This document shows positions 1-33,140 of a DNA stretch of 34,228 bases, piece by piece; the first letter of the stretch is position 1, and each line of letters opens with the position of its first letter. The translations under genes and the position numbers were made by a program. The notes under the pieces were generated by a model, which saw only the letters and a program-made list of their open reading frames with translations, ran no database searches and was not told the DNA's origin. This DNA is from Patescibacteria group bacterium (GTDB lineage Bacteria; Patescibacteriota; JAHJAL01), in contig DAIREY010000001.1 in assembly GCA_036795335.1 (NCBI GenBank), positions 1 through 34,228 of the forward strand. The letters run 5' to 3'.

Positions 1-40
1 GCAATGAAATCGCAAGGTAAAATTAGATAGTAACTCATTG

Positions 41-112
41 TGTCATACCCGCCTTCCGGGGTCCCCAATAAATCTGCAAGATTTTTGGGGTGGATTTGTG
101 CGGGTATCTTAT
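41..112 (+). repeat. Hairpin unit H1: outer stem ATACCCGC/GCGGGTAT enclosing inner GC stem CCCCAA/TTGGGG
   Basis: 45..52 pairs with 100..107 and 63..68 pairs with 85..90. The leader cgcaaggtaaaa..agtaa...tgtcatacccg is repeated at 200..243. Confidence 0.75.
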
Positions 113-231
113 CCGCAATAGGCAAGAAATTCCAAATCCCAAATCTCAAATTTCAAACGAAAGCAAGAATCAATTTTCAATATCCAATATCCAATTAAAA
201 TCGCAAGGTAAAAGTAAACAGTAATTAGAAT

Positions 232-286
232 TGTCATACCCGAAAAGACATGAGCGGAGCGAATATTCTTTGTCGGGTATCTCATT
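232..286 (+). repeat. Hairpin unit H2 (TGTCATACCCGA...TCGGGTATCTCAT)
   Basis: 236..243 pairs with 273..280. Near-identical inverted copy at 27463..27516, with about 4 mismatches in about 55 nt. Confidence 0.85.
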
Positions 287-470
287 CGTAACAATATGCA
301 AGGATCAATATCCAATATTTAATTTAAGCGCAAGAAATCTCAAACAGGAAACAAGGATCAATGATCAATATCCAATTTAATCGCAAGAAATTCAAAATTT
401 AAATCTCAAATTTCAAACGAGTCACATAGACAATTTTCGAGGATCGAAGTTATATTGTTTATAAAAAATT

Positions 471-3063: not shown

Positions 3064-6000
3064 TTATTCAACTATGTTCATGACCCATCTATTTTGTCCA
3101 TTGAATCGAACCAGTTCTACCTTCCGAATAAAATTTCCAAGATTGTCTTTCATGTCATACATAAAATCATTGTCTTGTTCATTTTTTGTGTTTAATCCGA
3201 GTTCTGTTTTGATCTGGCTCGTAAGTTGATTCAGCGGAATGAACCCTCTTACCGGAAAATTTACATCAATTCCGATTATTTTATCATTATTATTTGCATC
3301 TCTTCTCCAGGCAAAACTGGTCGGCTTGATTTTGGCGCCCGGAAGTTCAAATTTGTATCGAAGTCTGGCAACCGGCCAATCGCCATTATTGGACTTTTCA
3401 ACCAAAATCTCAAAATTTGCTTGCTCTTCATCACTCATAAACTCTGCCGCATTGCTTCCGTTAATCAAAAAGATATAAGCTTTATCATTGTTAAGATGCT
3501 TAACATGATAAACATAACGTTTTTTGTCTTGTTTCCATCTGCTTTCAATCAGCCAATCTTCCGTATCAAAGATAAATTTGTAGTTATTATTGAGCACATG
3601 ATCAAAGACAATTTTTTCGTTGGCGCGGATCGCGTATCGAAGAATATTGGGCTTACGTAGTGCTTGCGGATTGGCGGTTAATAATTCGGTAATAATTTTA
3701 TTGCAGGGTAACTGATTATCAACGACTAATAATTTTTCCAAAACCTCAATTTGTTCTTCTTTGGTAGCAAAATGTGGTAAGGCATCAAAAATCACATCTT
3801 TGGCATCGGGATATTTTGCCAGTATGGCCAGTGATTTTCCGGCATTTTTGGCAAAAAGATCAATGACAACTTTCTTGTATTGAGATGGTTTTGGTTTTAA
3901 ATATGACATGAATAGTTTTGACATATTATCATTTTCCAAATGCTCCAACAAACTTGGTTTGTCGATTAAGACTTCTACAATACCGAGATCATCAAATGGC
4001 AGGATATCTGCTATTTTTTTGAAATAAATTATTTGTTCTTGATCACTTAGAAGGTTCAATTTATTTATAGCTATTTTGGCAGTAAAACTATTGAGCGTTG
4101 TATCAAGTATTACTTTTACTTCTTCCGGTTTGGTGATTCTGTTCATCAACTCGTGCCGACATATGTTTGATTTTAAAACATAAATATAAATCAAAATGTT
4201 TGATAGGATTTCCGGGTTGTTGGCCACTTCTTCGACTAAAAATTTCTGCAATTGTTCGTGCTGAATGTCATTGCTATTTTTGTCCGTTTCTCTGATAAAT
4301 TCTTCTATCAAATTTACCTTTGATGCGGCATCAAAATTGCTTAACGTTTTGATAAATAAATCAGTGGCATTTTGGTGGTTCATTTTTAACAATTTTTTGG
4401 CTTTGTCTTCCGTTTGAATATGCCGTCTGATGACCGAATAAATAGTTGAATCAACTAACTCATCTTTGTAATTTCCCGCCCGGAAATCATTTGTGATGAA
4501 TTCTCCAATAAGCATTGCATTATTAAGAACAGCATTGATTTGTTGAATTTTTTGGGGTGCTTGCGTGGGATATTTGTTCTCGATAAATTTTCGACATTTT
4601 GTCACATCTCCATCCGCCCACGCTCCAAATACCAAATCGGAGATTTGATATTTGATAGCTTTTTCGAAAAATTGATTATGATTGAGCAAATCACTCCTAA
4701 GATAAAATACTTTTTCGAGATTTTTTTTGTTTATCAATCCCTTGTCTTCCAATTTATCGATGATCTCGGCGGCAAAAAGTTCTTCTTCATCGGTAATTTT
4801 GTCCAAAATTATTTTTGCCGTGTCTTCATTGACATATTTTAAACTTTTTACAATTTTTTCCGGACAATCCATCCAGCTCGTAATAGTGTCGGTAAATTGA
4901 TGATCAAAAGCATATTTTATTACATCAGCTTTGTCTAGCGAAATAATATTTTGACCTAATAAGCTGCTGAAATCCTTTTCTGATAACAAATTTTTGTCAA
5001 TCAATTTTAGAGCGACTTCGGTCTGATCTTTTTGGTCAAATTCAGCTGATTTATTTAATATGATACTGACTGACTCTTTATCAACATATTCCAGCGTTTT
5101 ATCTAATTTATCTCGATTATCGATCCAATCTTCAACCAATTTTCTGAATTGATTATCATTAATAGTCCTTTTTAATATAGTTTCGTCATCAAATTTCAAA
5201 TATCCTTTTTCGATTAATTGATGCAAATTCTGCCAATATATGTGAGATTTTGTCCAACAAATATTAGCAATTTGTCCTCTGATACTAGGATCAAATGCCT
5301 CCAAATTATGAATTATTTGATCCAGTTTTTCTTTGTGAAGACAGTTGATTATTTCTACGACCTCACTTTGATCTTTGGCTAAATCTTTAATTTTTTCTAT
5401 TAATTCCGGACCATTGTTGGCGATATGTCCTTTGTACCAAATTTCGTTCCTGGTTTTCTTAGGTAATTTATCGAGGAATTTATCAAAATTTCCTCCCTTG
5501 ATCTGCTGCTCAATGAGCATTCGAGCTAATTCTATTTTTTCCTCGGCTGGTAATTTTTTTAGATCACATGTGCCAAGTAATTCATCGGCACTGGCCGGAC
5601 TGTATTTGCAGATCAATCGCAACTGATCATTCGTGTATTTTTTTAATGCATGATCTCTAATATATTCTTGAAAATGATACTTTGAAAAACTATTGGCAAA
5701 TATATTTCCTACATCTTCTGACTCCAATATCTCAGGGTTTTTCAAAACAAATAAGTAATAATCCTCATCAGTCAATTTAAATTGAGAATACATTTTTCCG
5801 ACCAATTTTGCTGAAAAATTATATTTCTCGATTGTCATTTCCATGTATCTTACATATCTGTTGGAATTATATATAGCAGTATAATAAGCATCATTCTGTG
5901 TATGATAAATATTAAATCTAATTGATCGGATGTAGTCATTGATTTTCTCTTCATTGCTAAATTTATCGGCCCATTTCAAAATCTTTGCATATTCCAAGGC

Positions 6001-9000
6001 TTTGAGATATCGACCATTTACGTTGTCGATATATAATTTATTTAACACTAATTCTTCCTTCTGTTCCAAAGTCACTGATGGTAGATCGCTTATCATCACA
6101 TCTACTATAATATTTTGCAATTTTTGCAATTTGGATAGGGAGCTTTCCGCATAGGTTGACCCATGAATATTTTTTCCTACCCACTCGTTGAATTCCTGAT
6201 AACTCGTATATCTTGCTAGTCGATTTGAAATTTCATTCATATCTATCTTGGCGCCAGTTTTGGTATATTGTTTTTCCATATCGAGATAAAGCGTTTGCAT
6301 CAATTTTTTTATTTCGTTGATGTAATTTATTGTTGGATTCTTCGCACTATCCGGTTGAGCAGAATTTTTTTGATCTTCTGTCTTAAAGTAATCATATAAA
6401 TTTTTGACCAAATCATCCAAATGATGACAGCTGGGTTTTAGATCACCAAATATTTGTTGCCAATCTTGGCCTTTTTCTATTTTTCCCTTCATCCAATCAA
6501 AAATTATCTTCTGACATTTGGCCGAAGCCTTGTGCCGAACAAATTCAAAGACGTTTTGATCATCGAGCAATAAATGATTGTTGTTTATTTTTGTTGCTAA
6601 CAAATCAATCAAATTATTCATTTTTTCGCCGAGTATCTGGTTTACTCCCTCATCTGTTTCTGTTTCATTGATTAATTTTACCGCTGAGTAAAAATATTTT
6701 TTTATCATTTGCCCGTTATTGGGATCAATGTCTTGTTTCTCGATCTTGAAATTCAAAAGGCCGACTATGATTTCATTGTATTTTGGATGATTAACTTCCA
6801 TACTCTCCAAAATGGCTGTCATGTCTTCCACTAACTTTATTTTTCCTTCCTGACTACTTTTGTAGTATTTATTTTTTAATATCAAATAATTACTATAAAC
6901 ATCCGGATAATATTTTTCGACTATCTCTACAATCTGATTGTTGAGTTGAGTTCTTTTGGTGCCGGCGGAAAGTGTTGTCGATTTCAGATTGGTGACGATC
7001 CACTCGATCAATTGATGATTTTTGGCGATCAATTCTCCCTCAGTATCAAATTTCAAAATATGTCTATCCAGTATTTTTTTGATCGATGCTTCATCGATTT
7101 TTTGACCGGAGGCCAAGAAATGTTTCTCTAATTCACGGATAATTTTTTCGTACTGCAAATTTCCCAATTCATTTAACAATAATTGCTTCTGTTCATCATT
7201 GGTTTCATACTCTGCCAGTAGTTGCAATATTTGTTCCTTCTTTCGGACATCTGTGACTGACTTATCTTGCAAATTTCGCAACAGCCGACTGAGCTGATCC
7301 CAATTTCGAGCGATATCGTCCTTGATCAAAACATGATTTCTGGATAGAAATTTCAACAATTTTTCCATCAACAGTTGGTTGTAATTGTTTTTTAAACTGG
7401 CGATAATTTTTTCAAAAACAGCTTTTTGCTGATCCCATTCGCATCGATCAAGAATACTTTCCAGTTCGCGTTGAGAAAAGTCTTTTTCGGTGGCAGGAGC
7501 TTCTTTGGAAAAATCGAAATAATATTGAGAATCATTGCCAAAACGCATTTCAACCGGCAAGTCCAACTTTTTGCCGGTAAGTCGGGAAAAAATTAATTGT
7601 TTGTATTTGGCAAACTGAGCGGAATTAAAATTATTGAAAATAAAATTTTCCAAAGCGCGTATACTATTTTCATCATTCCAATCAATTTTTTGCCATAAAG
7701 CCATAATATTTCGTTCATCCGCATCACAATCGGATAACAACTGAGGAAGATAGACATCAATATTATCGCTCATCATATGTAAGATTTCAGAATAAAGAGT
7801 ACTGTTGGGATCGATAATATTTAATATGTTGGCTTCGATCACTAATTCGGGTCGATTGGTCTGTTTGACGATTTCATAAAATTCCGGCAGAAATTGATGC
7901 AAATTTTTGTCATTGGTGTAAATCACGTACAGCTCGCGACACATGGCGGCGGTCAATTTTCCGGCCAAACTATTGAGTACCAGGCGAAAACGGTCGTTGG
8001 TTATATGGACACCGTCTAAATACTTTTGGGGATCAAATGCCCACATGATAAATACCGGGACAAAATCTTCTTGATTGTCGATATTTCCCATATTTTCCGG
8101 GGTGAATTCAACCGTTGCATTTGGTTGGTGATCATCCCCTTTCGCGGGAATATGGTCATCATGATCAATAGTGCCTTTGATACCGGCATAGTCATCGTAC
8201 AGACCATCCGTATTTGTTTCAATAAGGACAGGTGTTTCAACAATCGCATCGCCGACGGATGGTTTTTTCAATACTTTGTCGATATATTGCACCATCTTAT
8301 TAAACTCCATCACATCATGCAAATTGTTCAAATCGTATGCCGCTGATAGTAATGAAAATAATTCGAAAAATAATACCCGTAGACCATCGTAGTCCTTTTT
8401 CTTTTCCAGCTTTCGAATACGTCGTATGTATTCTTTGTATAGTCGTGTATCGCGGTACACTCTGATATTTTTTGTTTCTTTTTCAAATTCTTCTCGACTG
8501 ATATGCCGGCGTTTTATAGCATAAAAAGCTACTCGTCCCATTTGTTGTAAATCTTTTGAATCGGTTTTGTCACTCAACTCGTGCTGTTGATTGTACATCA
8601 AGATTTGCAAATCTAACTTATTTTTTAGAATATCAATAAATTCCGGCGAATACATTTCATAACTGCTAAATTTCAATATGCCCCCTACTCGCAGATGATC
8701 AAGAATTCTTTGCCAAACTTGTTTGACTGTCTCATTTTCGTTTTTGTCATACTTGGCAATATCACCCCAGCTGGAACATTCGATTAAATCAAAATCTTTT
8801 TTTTCTAGGTCAAAATTTCGAGCATCACCAACGATATCGTATTCGGTACAACAATCGGCAATATTTAATCCTTTTTGTTTCATCTGTGCTCGACTGGCTT
8901 GATGCATCAATGGTGAAAAATCCAAGCTATATATTTCCGGCAAAGCAGTAATTTCCTTTTTTTCCAGCAGTTGTCCATAGGCGCGCAACTCTTCATGCGG

Positions 9001-10518
9001 ACCGCTGGCAACGGACAAGATCGATTTGATCTTGTCGGAAAGCCCTTGCTCTCTGATGTATTGAATTCCTTTTTCATGAATTTGTTGATGACGACCGCCC
9101 TCAATAAATTTGACGTAGCCTTCGCACATCCATTCCGGAAAAGGAACGCCCGGATTGCTGCGAATAAAACGTTCGAAGTCTTGGAAAAACAATCTGCATT
9201 CCGGGACCATCCGACCTTTTTCGCCAGCTTTTTTGCCACTTTTCGGTGAGCCAATCTTGATGAGATTTGGCGTATAAGCGCCGGTAATTGTCGTGTTTCC
9301 ATTTACAATATTATCTTTTATGCTCGCACCAAAGTCTTTAATATTCGGGTTTTCACCTCTTTCCAGCCGGCCAAAGAACAAATCTGTTTGGCTCGGGTTG
9401 TTTGCCAGTTCTCGTTGTTCTTTGGTCAATGGATAACTGAATGATTGGCGGAATCGAAAGTCGATTTCGTATTCGTTGGTATTGATTGTCTTGGCCAGCT
9501 CGGGTTTTCTTTCTTGAAAAAAATTGTACAGTCTTTTTCTTAAAAACTGATTGAAATATCTTTTGCGAACATCTAAGTGGATACTTTCCGTTTCGTCTTT
9601 GTCGTATTTTTCCAAATATTTTTGGGCTTTTTGTACGGCATTTTTTCTAATTTCTTCTTTCTTTTCTTGCAAAAGTTTTTGTTTGTCGGCGGTATTGGTT
9701 TGGGCATCAATTAAAGATTGCGGGTAAGTTTTATTAACTTCTTGTTCGGCTTGGACCATAGTATCTTCAAATAAATTTGTGACATTTTGTCCATTTTTTC
9801 GATTTTTAAAATCAAAATATTTTAGAGTCAAAAGATCGATGTTGGCATTTATTTTCGACAATAACTCATTGGCTTTGTTCATAACCAATGAAGTTTCTTT
9901 TTCATCCAAATCAAAATTTATCGATTTGTCCTTTTCGGCCGGATTGAGTTTTGTAAACGCCAAAACACCTTGAGGCATCTTATGCCCTTTGGTTCCTTTG
10001 GTGTGTTTGAGAAATGTTTCAAAACTTGGTTTGTGATATTCACCGCCCAGTCGGCGAGACCAAATATTTAATTCTTTATATTCACAATTTTCCGGTTGCA
10101 AAATATGAATTATTTCATTAATTTTTTTCTCGTCGTTATTATCTATTACGTTGACAAAGGCATTGGACAATAGCCAGATGTTTTCCAAATTACCTTTGGT
10201 GACATCCAATTCGTTTGTCAAAGCATCGCCGCCGGTAAGCTCATTGATCCACCTGCTGTCATGAAAGTATAATCCTATTTCACTGAGTTTTGCTTCGGGA
10301 AATATTTGGTGAAAGGTTTTTATTTGCGCACAAGACAACAAGGTGCCGTTGACTCTTAAAAAGTCCGTGAGTTGTTTATCGTCATATTGATTTTCTTTAA
10401 TTTCCGGGTACCATTTTTTGAGCAGAGTTGTCTCAGCTTCCTCGTAATTGGCAGTTTTTTTGTGATTTAATTCTTGCAAACTTAATCTTTCTTTCTTGCT
10501 TATTTTGTCTTGGTCCAT
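3064..10518 (-). CDS. Giant protein 1 (2484 aa): conserved N-terminal module with a SAM-MTase-like fold, long helical repeat region, small C-terminal domain. Family unknown.
   Basis: Uninterrupted 7.4-kb ORF in AT-rich DNA. Paralogous to 14764..19416. No signal peptide or TM seen. Own promoter and terminator. Confidence 0.9.
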   Translation of the reverse strand: MDQDKISKKERLSLQELNHKKTANYEEAETTLLKKWYPEIKENQYDDKQLTDFLRVNGTLLSCAQIKTFHQIFPEAKLSEIGLYFHDSRWINELTGGDALTNELDVTKGNLENIWLLSNAFVNVIDNNDEKKINEIIHILQPENCEYKELNIWSRRLGGEYHKPSFETFLKHTKGTKGHKMPQGVLAFTKLNPAEKDKSINFDLDEKETSLVMNKANELLSKINANIDLLTLKYFDFKNRKNGQNVTNLFEDTMVQAEQEVNKTYPQSLIDAQTNTADKQKLLQEKKEEIRKNAVQKAQKYLEKYDKDETESIHLDVRKRYFNQFLRKRLYNFFQERKPELAKTINTNEYEIDFRFRQSFSYPLTKEQRELANNPSQTDLFFGRLERGENPNIKDFGASIKDNIVNGNTTITGAYTPNLIKIGSPKSGKKAGEKGRMVPECRLFFQDFERFIRSNPGVPFPEWMCEGYVKFIEGGRHQQIHEKGIQYIREQGLSDKIKSILSVASGPHEELRAYGQLLEKKEITALPEIYSLDFSPLMHQASRAQMKQKGLNIADCCTEYDIVGDARNFDLEKKDFDLIECSSWGDIAKYDKNENETVKQVWQRILDHLRVGGILKFSSYEMYSPEFIDILKNKLDLQILMYNQQHELSDKTDSKDLQQMGRVAFYAIKRRHISREEFEKETKNIRVYRDTRLYKEYIRRIRKLEKKKDYDGLRVLFFELFSLLSAAYDLNNLHDVMEFNKMVQYIDKVLKKPSVGDAIVETPVLIETNTDGLYDDYAGIKGTIDHDDHIPAKGDDHQPNATVEFTPENMGNIDNQEDFVPVFIMWAFDPQKYLDGVHITNDRFRLVLNSLAGKLTAAMCRELYVIYTNDKNLHQFLPEFYEIVKQTNRPELVIEANILNIIDPNSTLYSEILHMMSDNIDVYLPQLLSDCDADERNIMALWQKIDWNDENSIRALENFIFNNFNSAQFAKYKQLIFSRLTGKKLDLPVEMRFGNDSQYYFDFSKEAPATEKDFSQRELESILDRCEWDQQKAVFEKIIASLKNNYNQLLMEKLLKFLSRNHVLIKDDIARNWDQLSRLLRNLQDKSVTDVRKKEQILQLLAEYETNDEQKQLLLNELGNLQYEKIIRELEKHFLASGQKIDEASIKKILDRHILKFDTEGELIAKNHQLIEWIVTNLKSTTLSAGTKRTQLNNQIVEIVEKYYPDVYSNYLILKNKYYKSSQEGKIKLVEDMTAILESMEVNHPKYNEIIVGLLNFKIEKQDIDPNNGQMIKKYFYSAVKLINETETDEGVNQILGEKMNNLIDLLATKINNNHLLLDDQNVFEFVRHKASAKCQKIIFDWMKGKIEKGQDWQQIFGDLKPSCHHLDDLVKNLYDYFKTEDQKNSAQPDSAKNPTINYINEIKKLMQTLYLDMEKQYTKTGAKIDMNEISNRLARYTSYQEFNEWVGKNIHGSTYAESSLSKLQKLQNIIVDVMISDLPSVTLEQKEELVLNKLYIDNVNGRYLKALEYAKILKWADKFSNEEKINDYIRSIRFNIYHTQNDAYYTAIYNSNRYVRYMEMTIEKYNFSAKLVGKMYSQFKLTDEDYYLFVLKNPEILESEDVGNIFANSFSKYHFQEYIRDHALKKYTNDQLRLICKYSPASADELLGTCDLKKLPAEEKIELARMLIEQQIKGGNFDKFLDKLPKKTRNEIWYKGHIANNGPELIEKIKDLAKDQSEVVEIINCLHKEKLDQIIHNLEAFDPSIRGQIANICWTKSHIYWQNLHQLIEKGYLKFDDETILKRTINDNQFRKLVEDWIDNRDKLDKTLEYVDKESVSIILNKSAEFDQKDQTEVALKLIDKNLLSEKDFSSLLGQNIISLDKADVIKYAFDHQFTDTITSWMDCPEKIVKSLKYVNEDTAKIILDKITDEEELFAAEIIDKLEDKGLINKKNLEKVFYLRSDLLNHNQFFEKAIKYQISDLVFGAWADGDVTKCRKFIENKYPTQAPQKIQQINAVLNNAMLIGEFITNDFRAGNYKDELVDSTIYSVIRRHIQTEDKAKKLLKMNHQNATDLFIKTLSNFDAASKVNLIEEFIRETDKNSNDIQHEQLQKFLVEEVANNPEILSNILIYIYVLKSNICRHELMNRITKPEEVKVILDTTLNSFTAKIAINKLNLLSDQEQIIYFKKIADILPFDDLGIVEVLIDKPSLLEHLENDNMSKLFMSYLKPKPSQYKKVVIDLFAKNAGKSLAILAKYPDAKDVIFDALPHFATKEEQIEVLEKLLVVDNQLPCNKIITELLTANPQALRKPNILRYAIRANEKIVFDHVLNNNYKFIFDTEDWLIESRWKQDKKRYVYHVKHLNNDKAYIFLINGSNAAEFMSDEEQANFEILVEKSNNGDWPVARLRYKFELPGAKIKPTSFAWRRDANNNDKIIGIDVNFPVRGFIPLNQLTSQIKTELGLNTKNEQDNDFMYDMKDNLGNFIRKVELVRFNGQNRWVMNIVE
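4621..5127 (-). repeat. Two tandem 84-85 aa protein repeats within giant protein 1
   Basis: WIDNRDKLDKTLEYVDKESVSIILNKSAEF...LKLIDKNLL aligns with WMDCPEKIVKSLKYVNEDTAKIILDKITDE...EIIDKLEDKGLI. Confidence 0.6.
8590..9030 (-). other. Class-I SAM-dependent methyltransferase-like domain inside giant protein 1
   Basis: ILSVASGPHEE (motif I-like), IYSLDFSPLM (acidic end of beta2), FDLIECSSW (beta4), LRVGGILKF (post-II), in canonical order and spacing. Confidence 0.6.
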
Positions 10519-14763: not shown

Positions 14764-17700
14764 TTATTTCGTTACCTTGAAAATCCAATTTCCGTCATTA
14801 TCCAATTTTTCATATCTAAGTTTTATAGCATTCAAAGAAGCAATATAGCCTTTCGATCGGATATCATCCAAGAATTTTTCCGGAAAATCATCGCGATGGA
14901 TAAAGCCAAGTCGTTTATTGTTGTCTCTGGCTTCCAATCCGCATACCGTTCCATGCTCATCTAAGGTCAAATAACAATCATTATTACATATATCGACAGT
15001 TGTATTAATTAATTTTCTTTTGTCTAATAAATTAACTCCTATGTCTGAAGAATTTTTCAGAATAACTTGTAGTTCATAATATTTTTTATCTTCGGATTTA
15101 ATTTTGCAAAAACTGTCTTCTCCATTAAAAATTTTTACTACTCTTTTACCCCCCTCCGGCCGTTTCAAGTAATAATTATTTTTTCCTATTTTTTCTATAT
15201 CCCAATCTTTTAGATTCAAAACCAGCTTGTTTTTTAGCGCGATATAAAATAAATCTTTTGGACAAAAATCTGTCAGGCAACTAAAGCTTTCGGGATAGAT
15301 TTGCAGGCTAGGATTATTTGCTGCCACTCTCATAAAGAATGATCTTGTGTGTTTGTTGTAATGTTTTTTGAACAATTGAGCGAAAATATTAGATCTTAAT
15401 GAATTTTCTTGTTTATGAATGACCAAAAATAATGCTAGTGTTAATCCTTTTTCTCCTTGATCGGCCAGATACAAGATATCATCAGTAGAGTGAATATCTA
15501 ATAGTATCGCCACATCTATTGCTTGATTGTTGTAGTTCATCGCTTTACGCAAAATTGTGCTATTATGAACTGCTTTGGGGAAAGCAGAGATGAAATGTAA
15601 AAATTTCTGTTGGTCAAAGTCTCGCAATGTATTCTGTAAAATTTTGGTTGCCGTTTTGTTGTCACAATTACTTATCATGCTGATTTTTTCAAAATTTTCT
15701 CCTACCCAATCAACTACCTGTGCCAAATTTTTAATCGATAAAATTTCTTGGCCGATCAGTATATTTGTTGTTTCTTTGTGCAACAATAAATCCATATTAT
15801 TGATCATTAAATTATTAATTTCAACAATATCGAATTGTGCTTTTACTTTCCAATTTTTGTCCGATGTGGATCTGGTAATCTTTCTCGCCAAAAACATTAT
15901 TTTGCGGTAGTCACTGGGATATTTTTCCAAAATTAGTTCTAATATTACATTATCAAACTCGTCTATTTTGGCTGTCGTTGGATCGTCCAAATTATTTTCC
16001 TGATAGCTCAAATATCTACCGGCCAAAAAATCGATCAATTCTGAATCATCCGACATTAATTTATTGAATTCATCAGTGACAACTTCTCTATCGATTACAT
16101 TATTACTTTTTTCTAAATGATTAATTTTGAAATCATTATATTTTTTTATCATGATTTCCATTTCAATTTTGTGAATTTTATTTTGAATCTCATCCAAATA
16201 GCCGCTATCCTGAAAAAAATATTTCTCCACAAATTTATATGCTTTCAATTTATTTGAGTTTTCCAAATTTTCCACCAACAATCCAAAACTGGTCACAAAA
16301 TTATCTACACTATCTGATGATGGTTTTTCGTTCTCAAAGATATTTATCATCTTTATAAAGTAATTTTTCAAGTCATCGGGCAAATCTTCGGAATTAGTCA
16401 TTTTTAAGACTTGTTGATTGTAAATACGTTTACTGAATATATCCAACAAATCACCTTTCAATAACTTATTTGGTATATTAATATTTATATTTTTCGGAGC
16501 ATTATTCATGATTATTCTGGCATATTTAGTCATATTTTTTTCATCAGTTTTTTCCGCCAAAAATTTATTGACTAATTCAACCGTATTATTATTTAACCAA
16601 TCAATATTCTGGATATAGGCTTTCTTAATTTCCTCATCGATATTTGAACTAAACAAAACATCAGCCAAAAATAATTCCGGAAACTTCAACATCATCTGCC
16701 AAACTTTCTTTCTTAATTCATTATTGCCTTTTACCAACGGCCATATTCGCGCATCATACACTAACTGAATTCTATCCACCGAATTTTCAATCAAACTCAT
16801 TATTTCCGGAAGCAAAACGGCTAATTTGCTATTTTCCAAACATTTTTGATACAATTTTTGGCAAGATTTCAGATCCAAATAGCCCACCAATTCGGTCAGC
16901 ATCACTTTTATCTGGTCCAAACTCAAGGAGTCACTTTGTACATGTAATTCAATATTCTTAATCGCTTCCAAATATATTTGAATTTTTACTTGTTCGGCTT
17001 TTTTATCCTTGCGCTTTTTTTGCTGCTTCCAATCTTGGCGAAAATCATTGATTGCGTTTAGTAAATTTGACAATTCGTTTGCTTCTTTTTCCAAACCTCT
17101 TTTTTGGCACTCGGTGCGATAAATAACAATCGATAATTCCAAATATTTCAAATTTTCCAAGTCTTCCTTGGCAAATAGTTTTGTTATTTCTTTGTAAAAA
17201 ATATCATGCAAATTGTTATCATCATAAATTTTGACATGGCTCATTTTCTGCTCATATTCAGCTAGCGAAACATCTCTGGTCTTAATTCCCTTGAACCAAA
17301 CGCGCGGTTTATCAATTCTTTTTTGTTGATCTTTGTGATTGCTATATTTCTCATCAATGTTGTATTCCAAAATTTTCATATCCAAATCATTGGTCAAGAC
17401 ATCGATAAACTGTTGGTTGTATCTTTTGTAACTATAAAAACGGATAATACCGCCATTTTTTAAATGTTGCAGTGATTTGTACCACATCTTTTTTACCACT
17501 TCTTCTTCGTTCTTGTTGCCATGGGTATCTTTCGAGAATTGAGCAATATCATCCCAACTGGAGCATTCAATCATGTCAAAATCTTTTTCTGACAAATCAA
17601 AGTTTTGCGCATTGGTATTTGGCAAATCTATGCCTTTATCAAAAATGTCCAATCCATTTTCTCTCATTTGTTCTCGACTAGAGGAGAGCATAGATTCTGA

Positions 17701-19416
17701 CAAATCAAGACTATAAATCTGGGGTAATGTTAAACTCGGATTATTTTTCACGTAATCCGCATACACTCTTAATTCTTCGTGCGGCCCACTACCCAAGGAC
17801 AATACTTTGCTGATGTTTTGCAGATAATTTCCATCCGGATGGCGATGCAAATATTCTAATCCCGATCGATGTTCATAGATGAAAGAACTTTTTTCCACCG
17901 CCCATTTGACATATCTATCCGCAAATTCACTTGGCCACGGTATTTCCGGATTTTTTCGTAAACGAGCCATGTCTTGCGCCAACTTGTAGCCGCCATTTAT
18001 CTGTTTCTTGGCATCCGGAAATTCATTGGCTTTTTTGTAAGCTTTGACCAAGCTCCCCGGATCAGCTCGATCGATGATAAAATTTTCATTGATCGGTTCG
18101 AGAGTTGATCCCGTATTCACTTTGGATTCAATAACGCTTTGGTCAATATATTTAGCTAATTTGTCTGAGCTTCCGGCTATTTCCGCATTTTTCTTATCCA
18201 TACCAATGTTTTTCTTCTGAAAAAAACGTAAGTCAAATTCAAAATCATTCAATTTGCCACTTTTCAGAATGGAATGACCATCTTCTTTGAAAAATTTGTA
18301 CAACAAATTCTTGATCCGTTTGTTGAAATAATAATTTTTGGCTTCTTTCCTGATTTTTTGATATTTCTTCTTATTTGAAGACATTGACTCTTCTGTTTTG
18401 GGCAAATTATCGGTATCTCGTTCATCGTTCCAATCCTGTTCGTCTATTTTATTTTTTAAATCACAAATATATTTGCCAATCAACATACTGGCTTCTTTTT
18501 TTATCCCCTGAATATTCTTGTGTTGCTCAGTCAATAACTCCCGGCTGTCGTTATTTATTTCAAACTCCAAACAATCTTGAAAATTATTCAGATATTTATC
18601 ATGTTTTTCTCGACAATCAATCACGTTTTTTCTGATTGATTCGTCCTCAATTAGATCTGGATTTCGGTAGAGAAAATCTATGACTAATTCATGAATATTT
18701 TCATTTAATTCATTCGACAATGATCGGACTTTATTGAACATCAGTGTTGTTTCAAATGGATTCAAAGCGATATTCCGAACTTGATTATTTTTTTTGTTTT
18801 TAACTTGAACGGTAGCACTCGGAATCTGAAAATCAATCTCTGTCTTTTCCGAATTCTCCATATCGGTCATTGCATCGGCAAAAAAAGAATATGAATGTGG
18901 TTTGTGAGTTTCATCCAATTTGGTTGTCTGAATGATAGCGGCGTTGTCGGGTTTGCTCTTCGTTTTATTGATGCAGTCGGTAATATTTTCCACAACTTTT
19001 TTTGGCTGTGAAGCAGACAGATTAGTTTGAAAAGCATTAATAATAGTCCAGGCACTATCACAATTTGGTTTGGAAATCTTTTCTACTCCGGGTTTGTTGC
19101 CACTATTGAATTTTCTCTGTTTCAAAAGCTGCTCAATCCATTTTGCACTTTCTTCTTTTTCCTGATTTTGAAACATGGATTTAATCTCCGCAAAATTGCG
19201 ACTCGGAAATGATTGACGCAACACGTCAATTTCCGCTAGCGACAACTGAATGCCAAAAAGTTGAAAAATGTCTTGCCTTTGTGCTTCGGAAAAAAATTTA
19301 GTTTCCGGATACCACTTATTTAGCATTCTTTTTTCGGTCGCATCATAAAAAGTACTCTGCTTTTTCATTGCCTCGCGTATTTGCAGTCTTGAGCGATTGC
19401 CTTTTTCTATATTCAT
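14764..19416 (-). CDS. Giant protein 2 (1550 aa), paralog of giant protein 1
   Basis: Shared blocks with 3064..10518: KWYPE, YFN..(I/L)(R/K)..LY.FF, (E/D)F(E/R)(I/F)D(F/L)RF, SGPHEELR, IYSLD, NFDL.EKDFD.IECSSW.DIA, FID.L...LD..IL.YN, and a C-terminal F..NG..F and ..G.W.... end. Confidence 0.9.
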   Translation of the reverse strand: MNIEKGNRSRLQIREAMKKQSTFYDATEKRMLNKWYPETKFFSEAQRQDIFQLFGIQLSLAEIDVLRQSFPSRNFAEIKSMFQNQEKEESAKWIEQLLKQRKFNSGNKPGVEKISKPNCDSAWTIINAFQTNLSASQPKKVVENITDCINKTKSKPDNAAIIQTTKLDETHKPHSYSFFADAMTDMENSEKTEIDFQIPSATVQVKNKKNNQVRNIALNPFETTLMFNKVRSLSNELNENIHELVIDFLYRNPDLIEDESIRKNVIDCREKHDKYLNNFQDCLEFEINNDSRELLTEQHKNIQGIKKEASMLIGKYICDLKNKIDEQDWNDERDTDNLPKTEESMSSNKKKYQKIRKEAKNYYFNKRIKNLLYKFFKEDGHSILKSGKLNDFEFDLRFFQKKNIGMDKKNAEIAGSSDKLAKYIDQSVIESKVNTGSTLEPINENFIIDRADPGSLVKAYKKANEFPDAKKQINGGYKLAQDMARLRKNPEIPWPSEFADRYVKWAVEKSSFIYEHRSGLEYLHRHPDGNYLQNISKVLSLGSGPHEELRVYADYVKNNPSLTLPQIYSLDLSESMLSSSREQMRENGLDIFDKGIDLPNTNAQNFDLSEKDFDMIECSSWDDIAQFSKDTHGNKNEEEVVKKMWYKSLQHLKNGGIIRFYSYKRYNQQFIDVLTNDLDMKILEYNIDEKYSNHKDQQKRIDKPRVWFKGIKTRDVSLAEYEQKMSHVKIYDDNNLHDIFYKEITKLFAKEDLENLKYLELSIVIYRTECQKRGLEKEANELSNLLNAINDFRQDWKQQKKRKDKKAEQVKIQIYLEAIKNIELHVQSDSLSLDQIKVMLTELVGYLDLKSCQKLYQKCLENSKLAVLLPEIMSLIENSVDRIQLVYDARIWPLVKGNNELRKKVWQMMLKFPELFLADVLFSSNIDEEIKKAYIQNIDWLNNNTVELVNKFLAEKTDEKNMTKYARIIMNNAPKNININIPNKLLKGDLLDIFSKRIYNQQVLKMTNSEDLPDDLKNYFIKMINIFENEKPSSDSVDNFVTSFGLLVENLENSNKLKAYKFVEKYFFQDSGYLDEIQNKIHKIEMEIMIKKYNDFKINHLEKSNNVIDREVVTDEFNKLMSDDSELIDFLAGRYLSYQENNLDDPTTAKIDEFDNVILELILEKYPSDYRKIMFLARKITRSTSDKNWKVKAQFDIVEINNLMINNMDLLLHKETTNILIGQEILSIKNLAQVVDWVGENFEKISMISNCDNKTATKILQNTLRDFDQQKFLHFISAFPKAVHNSTILRKAMNYNNQAIDVAILLDIHSTDDILYLADQGEKGLTLALFLVIHKQENSLRSNIFAQLFKKHYNKHTRSFFMRVAANNPSLQIYPESFSCLTDFCPKDLFYIALKNKLVLNLKDWDIEKIGKNNYYLKRPEGGKRVVKIFNGEDSFCKIKSEDKKYYELQVILKNSSDIGVNLLDKRKLINTTVDICNNDCYLTLDEHGTVCGLEARDNNKRLGFIHRDDFPEKFLDDIRSKGYIASLNAIKLRYEKLDNDGNWIFKVTK
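17359..17815 (-). other. Class-I SAM-dependent methyltransferase-like domain inside giant protein 2
   Basis: VLSLGSGPHEE, IYSLDLSESMLSSSREQMRENGL, FDMIECSSW, LKNGGIIRF. Confidence 0.6.
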
Positions 19417-21454: not shown

Positions 21455-21750
21455 TTCATGTGCGTCATCTCTGCCTTTACCGGGCCCCCAAGATTTTTTG
21501 TAAAAAATTTTGGGGTGGGTCGTCGTGAAGGGATCTTATTCTCTGGTTATCTGTTGTCAAGTTGCTGACAGAGATAAGTAACTTTGCGATTTTATCCAAT
21601 GGTAAAAGTAGATGACAATGGATGAGATACCCGCACAGGGCGGGTATGACACATGAATATGTATTTTTTGATTTTGACTGGATATTGGATATTGAAAATT
21701 GATATTTTGCGATTCATTGCATATTGAATCTTGCATATTTACTCATGGCG
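21455..21750. repeat. Mosaic intergenic repeat block B
   Basis: Degenerate H1-like unit with ccccaag...ttgggg at 21462..21545 (+). Hairpin ttatct..tgtca/tgaca..agataa at 21549..21580. H3 at 21622..21651. Heptad modules at 21665..21745, including an exact 25-mer (21679..21703) that is the reverse complement of 169..193, and a 23-mer (21717..21739) identical to 27584..27606. Confidence 0.85.
21622..21651 (-). repeat. Hairpin unit H3 (short-loop version: ATGAGATACCCGC-acag-GGCGGGTATGACA)
   Basis: Same conserved arms as H1 and H2 but in inverted orientation, with only a 4-6 nt loop. Confidence 0.8.
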
Positions 21751-27339: not shown

Positions 27340-27635
27340 TTTCGATGGACTGCTTTGTTTCTTGATCCCCGACATCGAAACGCTAAAGCTTTCGATTCGA
27401 GAATAACAGCCTTTCTGCACTCGTTTGAGATTTGAAATTTCTTATCCACTTGCTTGTTGCGTATGAGATACCCGATAAAGGATATTCTCTTCGCTCATGT
27501 CTTTTCGGGTATGACAGAATTAGTTAATTATCTTTTTCATTCTGTGATTCGTTTGAAATTTGGAATTTGGGATTTGAAATTTCTTGCATATTGAATCTTG
27601 CATATTGTTAGTGTTTGAAATTTCTTGTTTGTCGA
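27340..27635 (-). repeat. Mosaic intergenic repeat block C, mostly inverted relative to block A
   Basis: The reverse complement of 27441..27590 aligns with 118..300: X module gcaagaaatt.caaatcccaaat..caaatttcaaacga, then H unit. 27340..27430 aligns with 412..450 (caaacgagt...tcga..atcgaag). Confidence 0.85.
27463..27516 (-). repeat. Hairpin unit H4, an inverted near-identical copy of H2
   Basis: atgagatacccgataaaggatattctcttcgctcatgtcttttcgggtatgaca is the reverse complement of 232..286 with about 4 mismatches. Confidence 0.9.
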
Positions 27636-27654: not shown

Positions 27655-27885
27655 TTACTTGGTTTTGGTTATTGTCGTGGTCTGATCGGTTTCCAAATTG
27701 TTTCTGGAATCCATTTTAGGACAATCTCTTTTGGGGGGTGGCGCCGGAGAATTGCCGTGTTTGACCCAGATTCCATCCTGACAGATCCAACCGCCTTCAA
27801 AATTGTTCAGAGTGTGCCGGACCGACAAAATACTGGCAGCCGTGACCGCGGCTACAAATAAAATGATGATAAAAATGCCCACCAA
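27655..27885 (-). CDS. Small secreted or membrane-anchored protein (76 aa), downstream of the GT39 gene
   Basis: N-terminal hydrophobic IFIIILFVAAVTAASIL, two Cys, Pro-rich SPAPPPK. TTG or GTG start. The competing plus-strand ORF 27625..27861 is less plausible. Confidence 0.45.
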   Translation of the reverse strand: MVGIFIIILFVAAVTAASILSVRHTLNNFEGGWICQDGIWVKHGNSPAPPPKRDCPKMDSRNNLETDQTTTITKTK

Positions 27886-29693: not shown

Positions 29694-31526
29694 ATGTCAA
29701 AGAAAAAACTTTTCACGGGTATTGCTTCGTTCTTGGTCATAACAGGTCTGTCTTTGGTATCACTGATTGATGTCAAACACGGCCTTGGTTATGGCGGGGG
29801 AGGGGGTGGCAGCGCACAACCGAGTGCAACTATTAGTGTGATTTCTCCTAATGGCGGAGAAGTTTTAGGTGCCGGTTATACGGATACAATAAGTTGGAGT
29901 ACAACCGGGGGAACATTGATTTCCAAGGTATCGATTTCTTACTCAACCGACGGTGGAACGTACTTTACGACCATTGCTGATTTGGTGGACAATACCGGCA
30001 GTTATGAATGGTCAATTCCGGAAAATATTGAGACTACCAAAGCAGTTATAAAATTGCGTGGTTATACTTCCGGCGGTGGTTATTTGTATTCCGATAAATC
30101 GGATAGCAACTTTACTATTACTGCCAATGTCGAAATTCCGGCAGCACCAACCAATGTAGTCGTTTCCAATCCCGGTACAGGTGACAGTTTGAATATTAGT
30201 TGGGTCAATCCAGATAGTTTTGACTCTATACGAGTTTATCGCTCCACTGATGAAACCAGCGGTTTGGGCGAATTGATTCTTGATGATTCTACTTCCAGTA
30301 TGACTGACTCCGGTCTGACAAAAGACACAACATATTATTATACAATTCGTAGCGTCAACACGTCCGGCATCGAATCACAAAATACTGATCGTCACGCCGG
30401 CACTCCGACTGATTCCACTGGTGAAGGTTCGGTTAATGCTAATAATTCATATTTGTCGGCTGACAAAACTTCTGTCTTGGCTGATGGAGTGGATTATGCA
30501 GTAATTACCGTACATGCTCGCGATATAAAAAATAATCCAGTTACAAACGCTAACGTGACTTTGTATTCCAACCGTATGAGTGATGACTTAAATGCTGTTC
30601 TTGGTTCAGTTAATTCACAAACCAATGTTACCGATGGTTTAGGTGATGCCAGCTTTGTTGTTACTTCCAATGAAATTGGTATTTCTCAATATACCGCAAG
30701 TGTAAATAATGTTACTATCAACGATCAGATTTCGGTTGAATTTGCTCCAGTGAATCCTCCTTCTACCAATCCAGCAGATTATACTTACAGCTACGTTAGT
30801 CAATCATCAAATGCTACTGTCAAACAAGGTGGTGAGACAACTTTGACCTTGACTATCAAAAATACCGGCTCAGCAACTTGGTACAACACTGGTAGCAACT
30901 CGGTGCATCTTGGCACCGATCGACCGGCTGACCGAAATTGTGGATTCTACACAACCGGCTCCAGCTGGTTGTCAACCAATCGTATTGCCATGGATCAAGG
31001 TACTGTAGCTCCTGGTGAATTAGCTACCTTTACTTTTGCCATTGCCGGTGCTCCTTTGCCGGGTACATATCCAGAATACTTCCGTCCAGTGGTTGAAAAT
31101 GTTACCTGGATGAGTGATCAAAATATCAACTGGAATATCAATGTTACTGCTGCCAGTTATCAATATCAGTGGATCAGTCAATCAGAATACCCGACTTTGG
31201 ACACCAACGAACAAGCTACTTTGACTTTGACCGTTCAAAACACTGGTGACTCTACCTGGTATAATTCCGGCATGTTCCCTATTCATCTAGCCACTGACCG
31301 TCCAGCTGATCGATCCAGCGTAGTATATGATTCTTCTTGGTTGGCTATCAACCGTGCTGCAAGTATGAATGAATCAATTGTCGCTCCCGGTGAATATGCT
31401 ACCTTTACCTTTGAAATTCAAGCTACATCAAATAGCGGTACTTATTCCGAATACTTCCGTCCGATTGCTGAAAATCTTACTTGGATGAATGATGCCGGAA
31501 TATATTGGAATGTTACAGTTCGATAA
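29694..31526 (+). CDS. Secreted multi-domain surface protein: signal anchor, Gly-rich linker, SPNGGE-type Ig-like domain, FN3, Big_1 (invasin/intimin-like Ig), two NBR1-like Ig domains
   Basis: LFTGIASFLVITGLSLVSL; ISPNGGE...ISYSTDGG...GSYEWSIP; PAAPTNVVVSNPG...ISW...YYYTIRSVNTSG; LSADKTSVLADGVDYAVITVHARD; two copies of L.LT..NTG..TWYN.......L.TDRPADR...Y..SWL..NR......VAPGE.ATFTF.......GTY.EYFRP..E...WM. Confidence 0.85.
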   Translation: MSKKKLFTGIASFLVITGLSLVSLIDVKHGLGYGGGGGGSAQPSATISVISPNGGEVLGAGYTDTISWSTTGGTLISKVSISYSTDGGTYFTTIADLVDNTGSYEWSIPENIETTKAVIKLRGYTSGGGYLYSDKSDSNFTITANVEIPAAPTNVVVSNPGTGDSLNISWVNPDSFDSIRVYRSTDETSGLGELILDDSTSSMTDSGLTKDTTYYYTIRSVNTSGIESQNTDRHAGTPTDSTGEGSVNANNSYLSADKTSVLADGVDYAVITVHARDIKNNPVTNANVTLYSNRMSDDLNAVLGSVNSQTNVTDGLGDASFVVTSNEIGISQYTASVNNVTINDQISVEFAPVNPPSTNPADYTYSYVSQSSNATVKQGGETTLTLTIKNTGSATWYNTGSNSVHLGTDRPADRNCGFYTTGSSWLSTNRIAMDQGTVAPGELATFTFAIAGAPLPGTYPEYFRPVVENVTWMSDQNINWNINVTAASYQYQWISQSEYPTLDTNEQATLTLTVQNTGDSTWYNSGMFPIHLATDRPADRSSVVYDSSWLAINRAASMNESIVAPGEYATFTFEIQATSNSGTYSEYFRPIAENLTWMNDAGIYWNVTVR

Positions 31527-32589: not shown

Positions 32590-32620
32590 AAAAAACACCG
32601 ATTTTATTCGGTGTTTTTTA
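32590..32620 (+). terminator. Intrinsic terminator
   Basis: aaaaacaccg-attttat-tcggtgttttt. Confidence 0.8.
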
Positions 32621-32651: not shown

Positions 32652-32680
32652 TTGAAAAAATGAACAATTTTCTTTATACT
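32652..32680 (+). promoter_or_regulatory. Sigma70-like promoter driving the ORF-less unit
   Basis: TTGAAA (32652..32657), exactly 17 nt, TATACT (32675..32680). Confidence 0.55.
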
Positions 32681-32687
32681 TTGAAGT

Positions 32688-32847
32688 AGCATTTTTAAAG
32701 TGGTTCTACTACGAAAAAAATTTTGTGTCTTGAATGGTAACTTGTTAAATCAAGTTTTGGTCCCCAATTCGCGGCAAACTTATGTAGTAGAACTTCTTTT
32801 AAAAATGTTATTTTTGATAAAATTACTTGAGAAGAAGTAATTTTTTT
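32688..32847 (+). ncRNA. Candidate structured small RNA (about 160 nt) of unknown family
   Basis: The predicted TSS coincides with the 5-prime arm of a long closing helix: 32690..32699 catttttaaa pairs with 32798..32807, and 32704..32712 ttctactac pairs with 32784..32792. A second hairpin at 32819..32844 is followed by a T-run. No ORF longer than 9 codons. Confidence 0.45.
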
Positions 32848-33069: not shown

Positions 33070-33140
33070 TTATGATTTATTTGAAATTTGAAATTTCTTG
33101 CGATTAAATTGATTATTGAATATTGATCCTTGCATATTGT
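33070..33140 (-). repeat. Mosaic intergenic repeat block D (heptad modules only)
   Basis: 33120..33139 is the exact reverse complement of 292..311 (20 nt). 33092..33111 is the exact reverse complement of 373..392 (20 nt). Confidence 0.85.

Follow-up and report, generated by a model that had tools for sequence, protein, structure and literature searches.

Mosaic repeat arrays with SRM-like hairpins in intergenic spacers of a Patescibacteria genome

The window considered here is a 34,228-nt stretch of DNA (contig DAIREY010000001.1) in which four intergenic spacers carry blocks A to D, arrays of short directional repeat modules that are joined, except in block D, by a hairpin termed H. Sequence similarity assigns the window to a bacterium of the candidate phyla radiation (CPR; Patescibacteria): its UvrB shares 76-77% identity with proteins named ‘Patescibacteria group bacterium’, and its PD-(D/E)XK protein shows ~70% identity to many Patescibacteria and Parcubacteria proteins. 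Contigs 99.5-100% identical to the window are present in several JGI, ENA, Logan and NCBI assemblies. Other contigs compared with the window are named L001 and so on, L001 itself representing a relative at 96.4% identity. In this reduced-genome bacterium the arrays occupy ~3% of the window, in which no tRNA or tmRNA genes were found.

Modules of the four intergenic blocks

The initial annotation of this DNA described a mosaic family of modular, interspersed intergenic repeats, a core reading which holds and whose grammar recurs at other loci. A script check reproduced its exact matches, namely the reverse complements 169-193 and 21679-21703 (25 nt), 292-311 and 33120-33139 (20 nt) and 373-392 and 33092-33111 (20 nt) as well as the identity of 21717-21739 and 27584-27606 (23 nt); positions 232-285 and the reverse complement of 27463-27516 share ~90% identity. 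Across the window, 20 distinct 20-mers are repeated as opposed to none in 30 dinucleotide-preserving shuffles, and 54 repeated 16-mers compare with a shuffle mean of 1.8. Nearly all of these words lie inside the four spacers, where Tandem Repeats Finder (TRF) detects micro-arrays with a period of 7 nt at 127-151, 178-195, 21679-21706, 27552-27582, 33079-33096 and 33108-33126. The repeats do not correspond to an Rfam family, as the four spacers returned no match at gathering thresholds and only chance-level matches at E<=1, none of them on the modules.

Describing the blocks as by far the longest non-coding stretches of the window was an overstatement. Only ~70 nt of the 687-nt spacer D belong to the family, and another spacer of 383 nt (1248-1630) holds no modules at all. 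The non-coding part of spacer C is shorter than it appears because a plausible unannotated open reading frame (ORF) of 76 amino acids (aa) with an N-terminal hydrophobic helix, of membrane type, occupies 27655-27885 on the minus strand.

The module types X, Y and H that were distinguished initially are joined by a fourth, the leader L, which always precedes H (Table 1). X and Y modules are directional, ~30 nt long and start with (C)GCAAG. An X module consists of GCAAGAAAT followed by YYCAAAT heptads and TTCAAACGA, and a Y module of (aatat)GCAAG(ga/at/gg)TCAAT followed by ATCCAAT or ATGCAAT heptads (NNNCAAT type) and TTAAATC. The leader, CGCAAGGTAAAA.TAAA.AGTAACT....T, comprises ~30 nt with a core also written ..AAAATTAAANAGTAACT....T; its consensus is kept in 22 H flanks, and its two copies in block A were measured to lie 191 nt apart by repeat search, not 189 nt as first given. 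H has the form tGTCAT-stem-loop-stem-ATCTCAT, is followed by a trailer, tcgTAACAAtat (TCGTAACAATAT), and occurs in three types: Hb (30 nt), Ha (54 nt, with 17 near-identical copies at at least 10 loci) and Hc (72-77 nt), the last with a nested CCCCAA/TTGGGG hairpin. The X, Y and L modules and the combination of GCAAG with heptads are newly described interspersed-repeat units.

The initial annotation also had the modules assembled in different orientations, which is true between blocks and for one hairpin of block B. Within blocks, however, modules are co-oriented, with motif matches per strand of, for example, 0/15, 19/0 and 0/21. Block B is the sole exception, its Hc-type hairpin at 21463-21539 lying on the strand opposite to the remainder (Hb and Y on minus), and block orientation bears no fixed relation to the neighbouring genes. 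On the family strand, the modules other than H are composed of 47% A, 24% T, 17% C and 12% G and show autocorrelation at 7 nt (0.48, with a baseline of ~0.28). X and Y modules are unfolded on both strands (z ~0), and the G+C content of 44.5% in H as opposed to 29% in the modules creates a G+C wave along the arrays.

Several other roles were considered and dropped: a CsrA-type GGA sponge (GGA motifs too few), a CRISPR-like array (spacing irregular), promoter or UP-element arrays (no orientation rule), intrinsic terminators (T-run lacking after H) and a DNA-uptake-sequence role of GCAAG (59 occurrences in 34 kb, about chance level). Ha (232-297 and its copies) also contains an ATG-initiated frame, MSGANILCRVSHS followed by a stop, of 13-18 codons depending on the copy. 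As a micro-ORF (ATGAGCGGAGCG...TAA) it was discarded, since it has no ribosome-binding site and its stop position varies, and the frame is probably fortuitous.

Table 1. Modules and hairpins of blocks A to D in the window
Block	Feature	Position	Strand	Remarks
A	Tail of Y-type (ATGCAAT) module, cut by contig end	1-10	+	Block A goes on upstream in other assemblies
A	Leader L1, cgcaaggtaaaattagatagtaactcattg	11-40	+	Direct repeat of 202-231
A	Hairpin Hc, 72 nt, tGTCAT-ACCCGC...GCGGGT-ATCTTAT, nested CCCCAA..TTGGGG in loop	41-112	+	DNA fold -15.9 kcal/mol, z=-4.5
A	X module, GCAAGAAAT + TCCAAAT CCCAAAT CTCAAAT TTCAAAC GA	122-160	+	TRF period 7
A	Y module, GCAAGAATCAAT + TTTCAAT ATCCAAT ATCCAAT TAAAAT	163-201	+	169-193 = reverse complement of 21679-21703
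A	Leader L2	202-231	+	Direct repeat of L1
A	Hairpin Ha, 54 nt	232-285	+	DNA fold -8.8 kcal/mol, z=-2.4
A	Ha trailer, tcgtaacaatat	286-297	+	
A	Y-X-Y-X modules incl. 53-nt tandem unit	298-420 (298-329, 330-351, 352-382, 383-420)	+	
B	Hc-type hairpin, cGTCAT-CTCT...AGGG-ATCTTAT, nested CCCCAAGATTTTTT/AAAAAATTTTGGGG	21463-21539	+	Fold -12.9 kcal/mol, z=-3.3
B	Hairpin Hb, 30 nt, TGTCATACCCGCCCTGTGCGGGTATCTCAT	21622-21651	-	Fold -8.3 kcal/mol, z=-5.1
B	Y-type modules, ATCCAAT and ATGCAAT heptads, GCAAGATTCAAT	21652-21741	-	
C	Decayed H hairpin, GTTATTCTCGA...TCGGGGATC, C-to-T changes in 5' arm	27364-27407	-	Inferred by reading the sequence
C	X module	27421-27446	-	Repeat search
C	Hairpin Ha, 54 nt; diverged leader 27517-27548	27463-27516	-	
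C	X 27549-27587, Y 27588-27610, short X 27611-27627	27549-27627	-	27584-27606 = 21717-21739
D	X 33077-33101, Y 33102-33140, without hairpin	33077-33140	-	

Dispersal of the family and alleles of block A

The repeat family is dispersed over many loci. A metagenome scan with the Y-module pattern returned 118 loci, mostly chance matches, and ~12 metagenome loci share the grammar of the window (L020, L023/L100, L034, L053, L065/L072, L075, L096, L112, L129 and L135). tRNA genes adjoin three of the blocks (Lys in L075, Val in L034 and Leu in L072). At least eight contigs end inside blocks, as is to be expected of multi-copy repeats, which explains the assembly breaks at these spacers.

The spacer of block A, located upstream of the PD-(D/E)XK gene, was compared at L149 (2884-3376), L001 (5397-5652) and L002 (671-1357), revealing at least three alleles among strains that are 96-99.9% identical. 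In the 256-nt allele of L001, the Nramp gene is followed by Y L Ha Y X. The 687-nt allele of L002 and L005 corresponds to this form with a second L-Ha, an L-Hc and extra X and Y modules; here ~220 nt more array lie upstream and reach the Nramp stop codon. Both the window and L003, which reaches 5 nt further upstream than the window, are truncated versions of this 687-nt form. In the 493-nt allele of L149, RuvA-RuvB and not Nramp lies upstream, followed by Y L Hc X, a 166-nt module and Y X. Since L149 and the window are 99.5% identical downstream of the array and L149 has RuvB upstream, the array marks a rearrangement junction within the species.

The difference of 431 nt between the 256- and 687-nt alleles equals 378 + 53 nt, the spacings of the Ha copies and of the 53-nt tandem unit, one of which is missing from L001. 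As these are internal direct-repeat spacings, unequal homologous exchange is indicated. The arrays thus differ among near-identical strains by unequal crossing-over between repeats and even by exchange of the flanking gene, and the block A alleles with their swapped neighbour provide direct population evidence of the arrays as rearrangement sites. Together with the further metagenome loci, the three alleles also establish that the family is neither a local duplication nor fixed, the two points on which the initial annotation had asked for comparison with other genomes. The 166-nt module of L149 (3085-3250), absent from the window, recurs in L096 (307-463) at 85% identity; it contains a small hairpin, cgtagcaactacg, and is not heptad-based.

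Miniature inverted-repeat transposable elements or remnants of insertion sequence (IS) ends, inserted repeatedly into the same spacers, would likewise be multi-copy and intergenic only, would break contigs where they lie and would produce alleles of varying size. However, terminal inverted repeats and target-site duplications were not found at block or module borders, the blocks have no adjoining transposase, and the allele differences match the 378- and 53-nt spacings expected of unequal exchange and not of insertion or excision. Viral contigs contain no X-module pattern and one isolated match to the H pattern. An origin from such elements is therefore barely credible.

More distant relatives lack the arrays. 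In L147, which shares 73.7% DNA identity in the PD-(D/E)XK gene, the corresponding spacer is without modules. L137 (UvrB 80%) holds no X, Y or L in 22 kb and only one degenerate H-like element, and L139 (UvrB 77%) has only an H(+)/H(-) doublet. On the strength of these comparisons, H-type hairpins are widespread in the group, with the X, Y and L modules as a recent, lineage-specific elaboration.

The hairpin H and the targets of Ssn nucleases

H is represented by 28 instances with 20 distinct sequences, and its outer stem was analyzed on 14 distinct versions reduced to outer stems. The outer 8-bp helix is 96.4% paired, and four of its eight pairs are changed on both sides, as in ATACCCG/CGGGTAT versus ATCCCCG/CGGGGAT. 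This pairing and covariation was matched by none of 500 shuffles, and slid controls reached at most 46% pairing; L129 and L096 carry versions of Hc whose stems have changed in a compensatory way. The flanks are unpaired and invariant, with GTC on the 5' side and C-T on the 3' side, and AT is also invariant. The stem of H is hence kept by compensatory changes between invariant flanking GTC and C. Hairpins of the form GTCAT-palindrome-C number four in the window (0.11 expected), and the DNA folds of H show z scores of -2.4 to -5.1, the RNA fold also being good.

The blocks could be regarded as small RNA genes or cis-regulatory RNA leaders in which H acts as a functional RNA hairpin. Compensatory and G-U-type changes in the stems, the good folding of H as RNA and the frequent position of blocks upstream of genes are all compatible with such a role, but the orientation relative to neighbouring genes is inconsistent, X and Y are unstructured on both strands and Rfam offers no match even at E<=1. 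Moreover, the arrays are missing from the orthologous spacers of L147, L137 and L139 (77-80% UvrB protein identity in the latter two), and copy number varies between 99.5%-identical strains, which renders an RNA function quite unlikely.

The sequence family of the hairpin, to which no name could be given initially, is better described by comparison with NTS, NTSvar and the wider group of Ssn-related motifs (SRM), targets that the 94-aa nuclease SsnA, with its single GIY-YIG domain (cd10448), binds and cuts only as single-stranded DNA (Chenal et al., Nat Commun 2025, PMC11893778). The Neisseria NTS is CGTCATTCCCGCGMAVGCGGGAATCYRG, i.e., CGTCATTCCCGCG..CGCGGGAATC, and NTSvar is CGTCATACTCGGG-N5-CCCGAGTATC. 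Cleavage is governed by the three bases 5' of the palindrome and binding by the C right after it, the loop of SRM and NTS is dispensable and extendable, and the motif typically lies at both ends of the ssn gene, of cd10448 GIY-YIG type with at most 150 aa (Chenal et al., 2025, PMC11893778).

H has this NTS/SRM architecture, as judged by its defining elements. The HGTCWY 5' flank is represented by (C/T)GTCAT, invariant in the 14 distinct stem versions and all 28 instances; it is followed by a G+C-rich semi-palindrome from AT.CCCG with an 8-bp stem and then by ATC, in which the C after the palindrome (column 25) is invariant. As in NTS and SRM, the loop is variable and takes inserts, and the copies are many and intergenic. 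H differs in the part of the stem beside the loop and in the third stem base, which is A or C and not T. Its total length of 30-77 nt exceeds the stated 20-50 nt in the long-loop variants, where loops reach 40-60 nt and contain nested hairpins, and a conserved leader and trailer enclose H. Patescibacteria are not mentioned by Chenal et al. (2025, PMC11893778).

The lead to this identification was given by matches across phyla. A scan of 185,579 representative genomes with the exact H string, TGTCATACCCG-N5-35-CGGGTATCTCAT, yielded 10 matches compared to ~0.5 expected by our own estimate under a uniform model. They lie in Rickettsiales, Neisseria dentiae, Bacteroidota, Elusimicrobia and Alphaproteobacteria, each being a clean hairpin in the tGTCAT...ATCTCAT frame, and most of the loci contain sister hairpins with other stems. 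At the Rickettsiales and Neisseria loci, the H matches share the locus with hairpins that match the published SRM string. Within the Rickettsiales metagenome-assembled genome (MAG) Cyl330_bin36, an identical 32-nt hairpin, TTGTCATACCCGGCTTGACCGGGTATCTCATC, is present on three contigs (L006, L008 and L011) and adjoins variants with other stems (GCCC, CCCC, TTCC); this MAG looks like the carrier of a large SRM repertoire.

In other Patescibacteria, hairpins of this type are linked with Ssn-like genes. Searching with a consensus of small GIY-YIG proteins recovered thousands of PF01541 proteins of 93-100 aa, including proteins named Parcubacteria, Uhrbacteria and Patescibacteria, and in three of the three Patescibacteria contigs inspected a GTCAT-hairpin-ATC element adjoins the gene. 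Hairpins flank the Ssn-like gene on both sides in L142 and L143, the downstream copy being inverted. In L144, the hairpin TGTCATCCCCGCCTTGAGCGGGGATC lies directly downstream of the gene and is identical to H of L139, matching Hb of L072 and L034 at 25/26 positions and Hb of the window at 22/26. The Ssn-like gene of L142 (3538-4399; Parcubacteria) and its two hairpins are located inside a tRNA cluster (Ile, Phe, Pro | gene | Gly).

Array architecture and proposed mechanism

Neisserial intergenic mosaic elements (NIMEs) consist of dRS3 hairpins flanking many RS unit families, which results in a G+C wave; at one position they vary between strains, and recombination end-points are associated with them (Bentley et al., 2007, PMC1797815). 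The blocks described here resemble NIMEs as long intergenic arrays in which a G+C-rich hairpin alternates with lower-G+C units of many kinds, in their own G+C wave (44.5% versus 29%), in the variation of arrays at the same position between strains and in the location of arrays at recombination end-points. They differ in the hairpin, which is not dRS3 (ATTCCC-N8-GGGAAT), as H has ATACCCG or ATCCCCG and loops of 5 to ~50 nt, and in their units, which are ~30 nt long in contrast to 50-150 nt, consist of 7-nt repeats and share a GCAAG start. Furthermore, several modules may lie between hairpins, block D is hairpin-free, all units are co-oriented and the phylum is a different one.

In overall architecture the arrays thus appear closer to NIMEs than to repetitive extragenic palindromes (REPs) and bacterial interspersed mosaic elements (BIMEs), to which they were likened initially and which are known from E. 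coli, Pseudomonas and others. According to that comparison, H would be a palindrome mobilised by a REP-associated tyrosine transposase (RAYT; an IS200-like Y1 transposase) and the blocks would be BIMEs. The two systems do share intergenic palindromic hairpins mixed with other motifs into mosaics, with a presumed recognition of the single-stranded DNA hairpin, and RAYT genes exist in the group, on the family-bearing contig L072/L065 and in the relative L137. H, however, lacks a GTAG head, its copies are co-oriented and not alternating within arrays, and the RAYT genes are flanked by REPs other than H. The RAYT of L072 (6738-7415) lies among different, GTAG-type REPs, GTAGGGACAGGTTTRAAACCTGTCCCTAC, and that of L137 (2400-3400) among tandem arrays of GGGCGGACCCAAGTGTCCGCCC, also inside the gene region. 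Since these RAYTs carry their own cognate palindromes, the RAYT lead was rejected and a second, independent hairpin-repeat system coexists with the one described here; mobilisation of H by a RAYT is highly improbable.

Other repeats are alike in single respects. The STRR sequences of heterocystous cyanobacteria are short tandem 7-nt repeats in spacers, and pneumococcal BOX elements have a modular A-B(n)-C structure with a variable number of units; their sequences and host phyla are unrelated to the arrays here. Neither STRR nor BOX is known to be punctuated by GCAAG or coupled to an SRM-type hairpin.

Taken together, the blocks are probably NIME-like mosaic arrays with an SRM-class hairpin in an uncultivated Patescibacteria lineage, reshuffled as a result of nicking by an Ssn nuclease. 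H would fold when the DNA becomes single-stranded during replication, repair or uptake of transforming DNA, and an Ssn-type single-domain GIY-YIG nuclease encoded by the lineage would bind the folded hairpin and nick a few bases 5' of it, inside leader L. Such nicks, together with the dense short homologies, may restrict or stimulate local recombination, the outcome being duplication, deletion and shuffling of modules and adjacent genes. The G-poor heptads, as an RS-like filler, would leave H exposed in unstructured DNA and probably grow by slippage.

Several results weigh against this explanation. By tblastn with a GIY-YIG consensus, no GIY-YIG/Ssn gene was detected in the window and all family-bearing loci, which together sample ~150 kb (perhaps 15% of a CPR genome), and no ORF of the window has a GIY-YIG Pfam match; as no such gene was detected in these ~150 kb, the nuclease step is one that we infer. 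The published SRM string, HGTCWYN(0-2)YYVSBRHN(0-5)WNVSBRGN(0-2)RNCYNB, has no match in the window or in any of the family loci. The same string matches hairpins in L006-L012 and in the flanks of the Ssn-like genes of L143 and L144, but it detects neither the hairpins that flank the Ssn-like gene of L142 nor one of those in L144. An RNA structure, or any hairpin that is copied as a unit, should show compensatory stem changes as well, and convergence towards a simple GC-rich palindrome could account for part of the ten matches across phyla. Nothing comparable to X, Y and L is described in the literature on Ssn or NIMEs. Finally, no orthologues of the window genes were found on the other family loci, which may belong either to this genome or to those of relatives. 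The proteins adjoining blocks (145 aa in L129, 141 aa in L112, 143 aa in L096 and others) are not nucleases.

The main alternative is that of a passive satellite, in which the heptads expand in spacers by slippage and unequal crossing-over and the hairpins are leftover palindromes that have no dedicated protein and resemble SRMs by coincidence. It fits the strong 7-nt periodicity and the unequal exchange that accounts for the alleles, and it agrees with the lack of an Ssn gene in the sampled DNA and with the failure of the SRM string on H. A satellite does not, however, explain why the unpaired GTC and C flanks are invariant over 20 distinct hairpins with varying stems and loops, nor the fixed order of leader, H and trailer, the hairpin with 25-26/26 matching positions that lies downstream of the Ssn-like gene on a different Patescibacteria contig, or the same hairpin beside canonical SRMs in unrelated phyla. 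It is therefore considered unlikely.

As obligate episymbionts, Patescibacteria rely on imported DNA and nucleotides. In such a setting, an Ssn-hairpin system in NIME-like arrays might serve as a set of programmed hot or cold spots that choose which incoming or replicating DNA is recombined and so reshuffle neighbouring surface and membrane genes at the level of strains, a possibility that is put forward tentatively and remains rather doubtful. The first description of Ssn nucleases and their hairpins dates from 2025, and NIME arrays, thought to be confined to Neisseria, have been stated as not seen outside this genus (PMC1797815). SRM-type hairpins within NIME-like arrays, their phylum and the heptad modules would all be new. 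If the arrays do act as such hot or cold spots, genome plasticity of the NIME type would be a general strategy of host-associated bacteria across phyla and not a peculiarity of Neisseria, and L-H oligonucleotides offer a concrete, testable substrate for a CPR Ssn enzyme.

Further features of the window lie apart from the modules. Two hairpins that do not belong to the repeat family lie in spacer D. One (32598-32615) resembles a bidirectional terminator; the other (32686-32811) is long and very stable, with ~27 bp in its closing stem, an RNA fold of -38.4 kcal/mol and z scores of -5.7 on the plus and -4.0 on the minus strand. The latter, without a match in Rfam, is a candidate small RNA. On the minus strand, a perfect TTGACA-18-TATAAT promoter (32923-32894) is directed towards it, and TTGAAA-17-TATACT is present on the plus strand (32652-32680). 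Two giant minus-strand ORFs, 3064-10518 (2484 aa) and 14764-19416 (1550 aa), have a 70-nt stretch in common (8756-8825 and 17543-17612, 77% identity), and the gene of an Ig-like surface protein contains an internal duplication (30990-31145 and 31365-31520) with a spacing of 375 nt.

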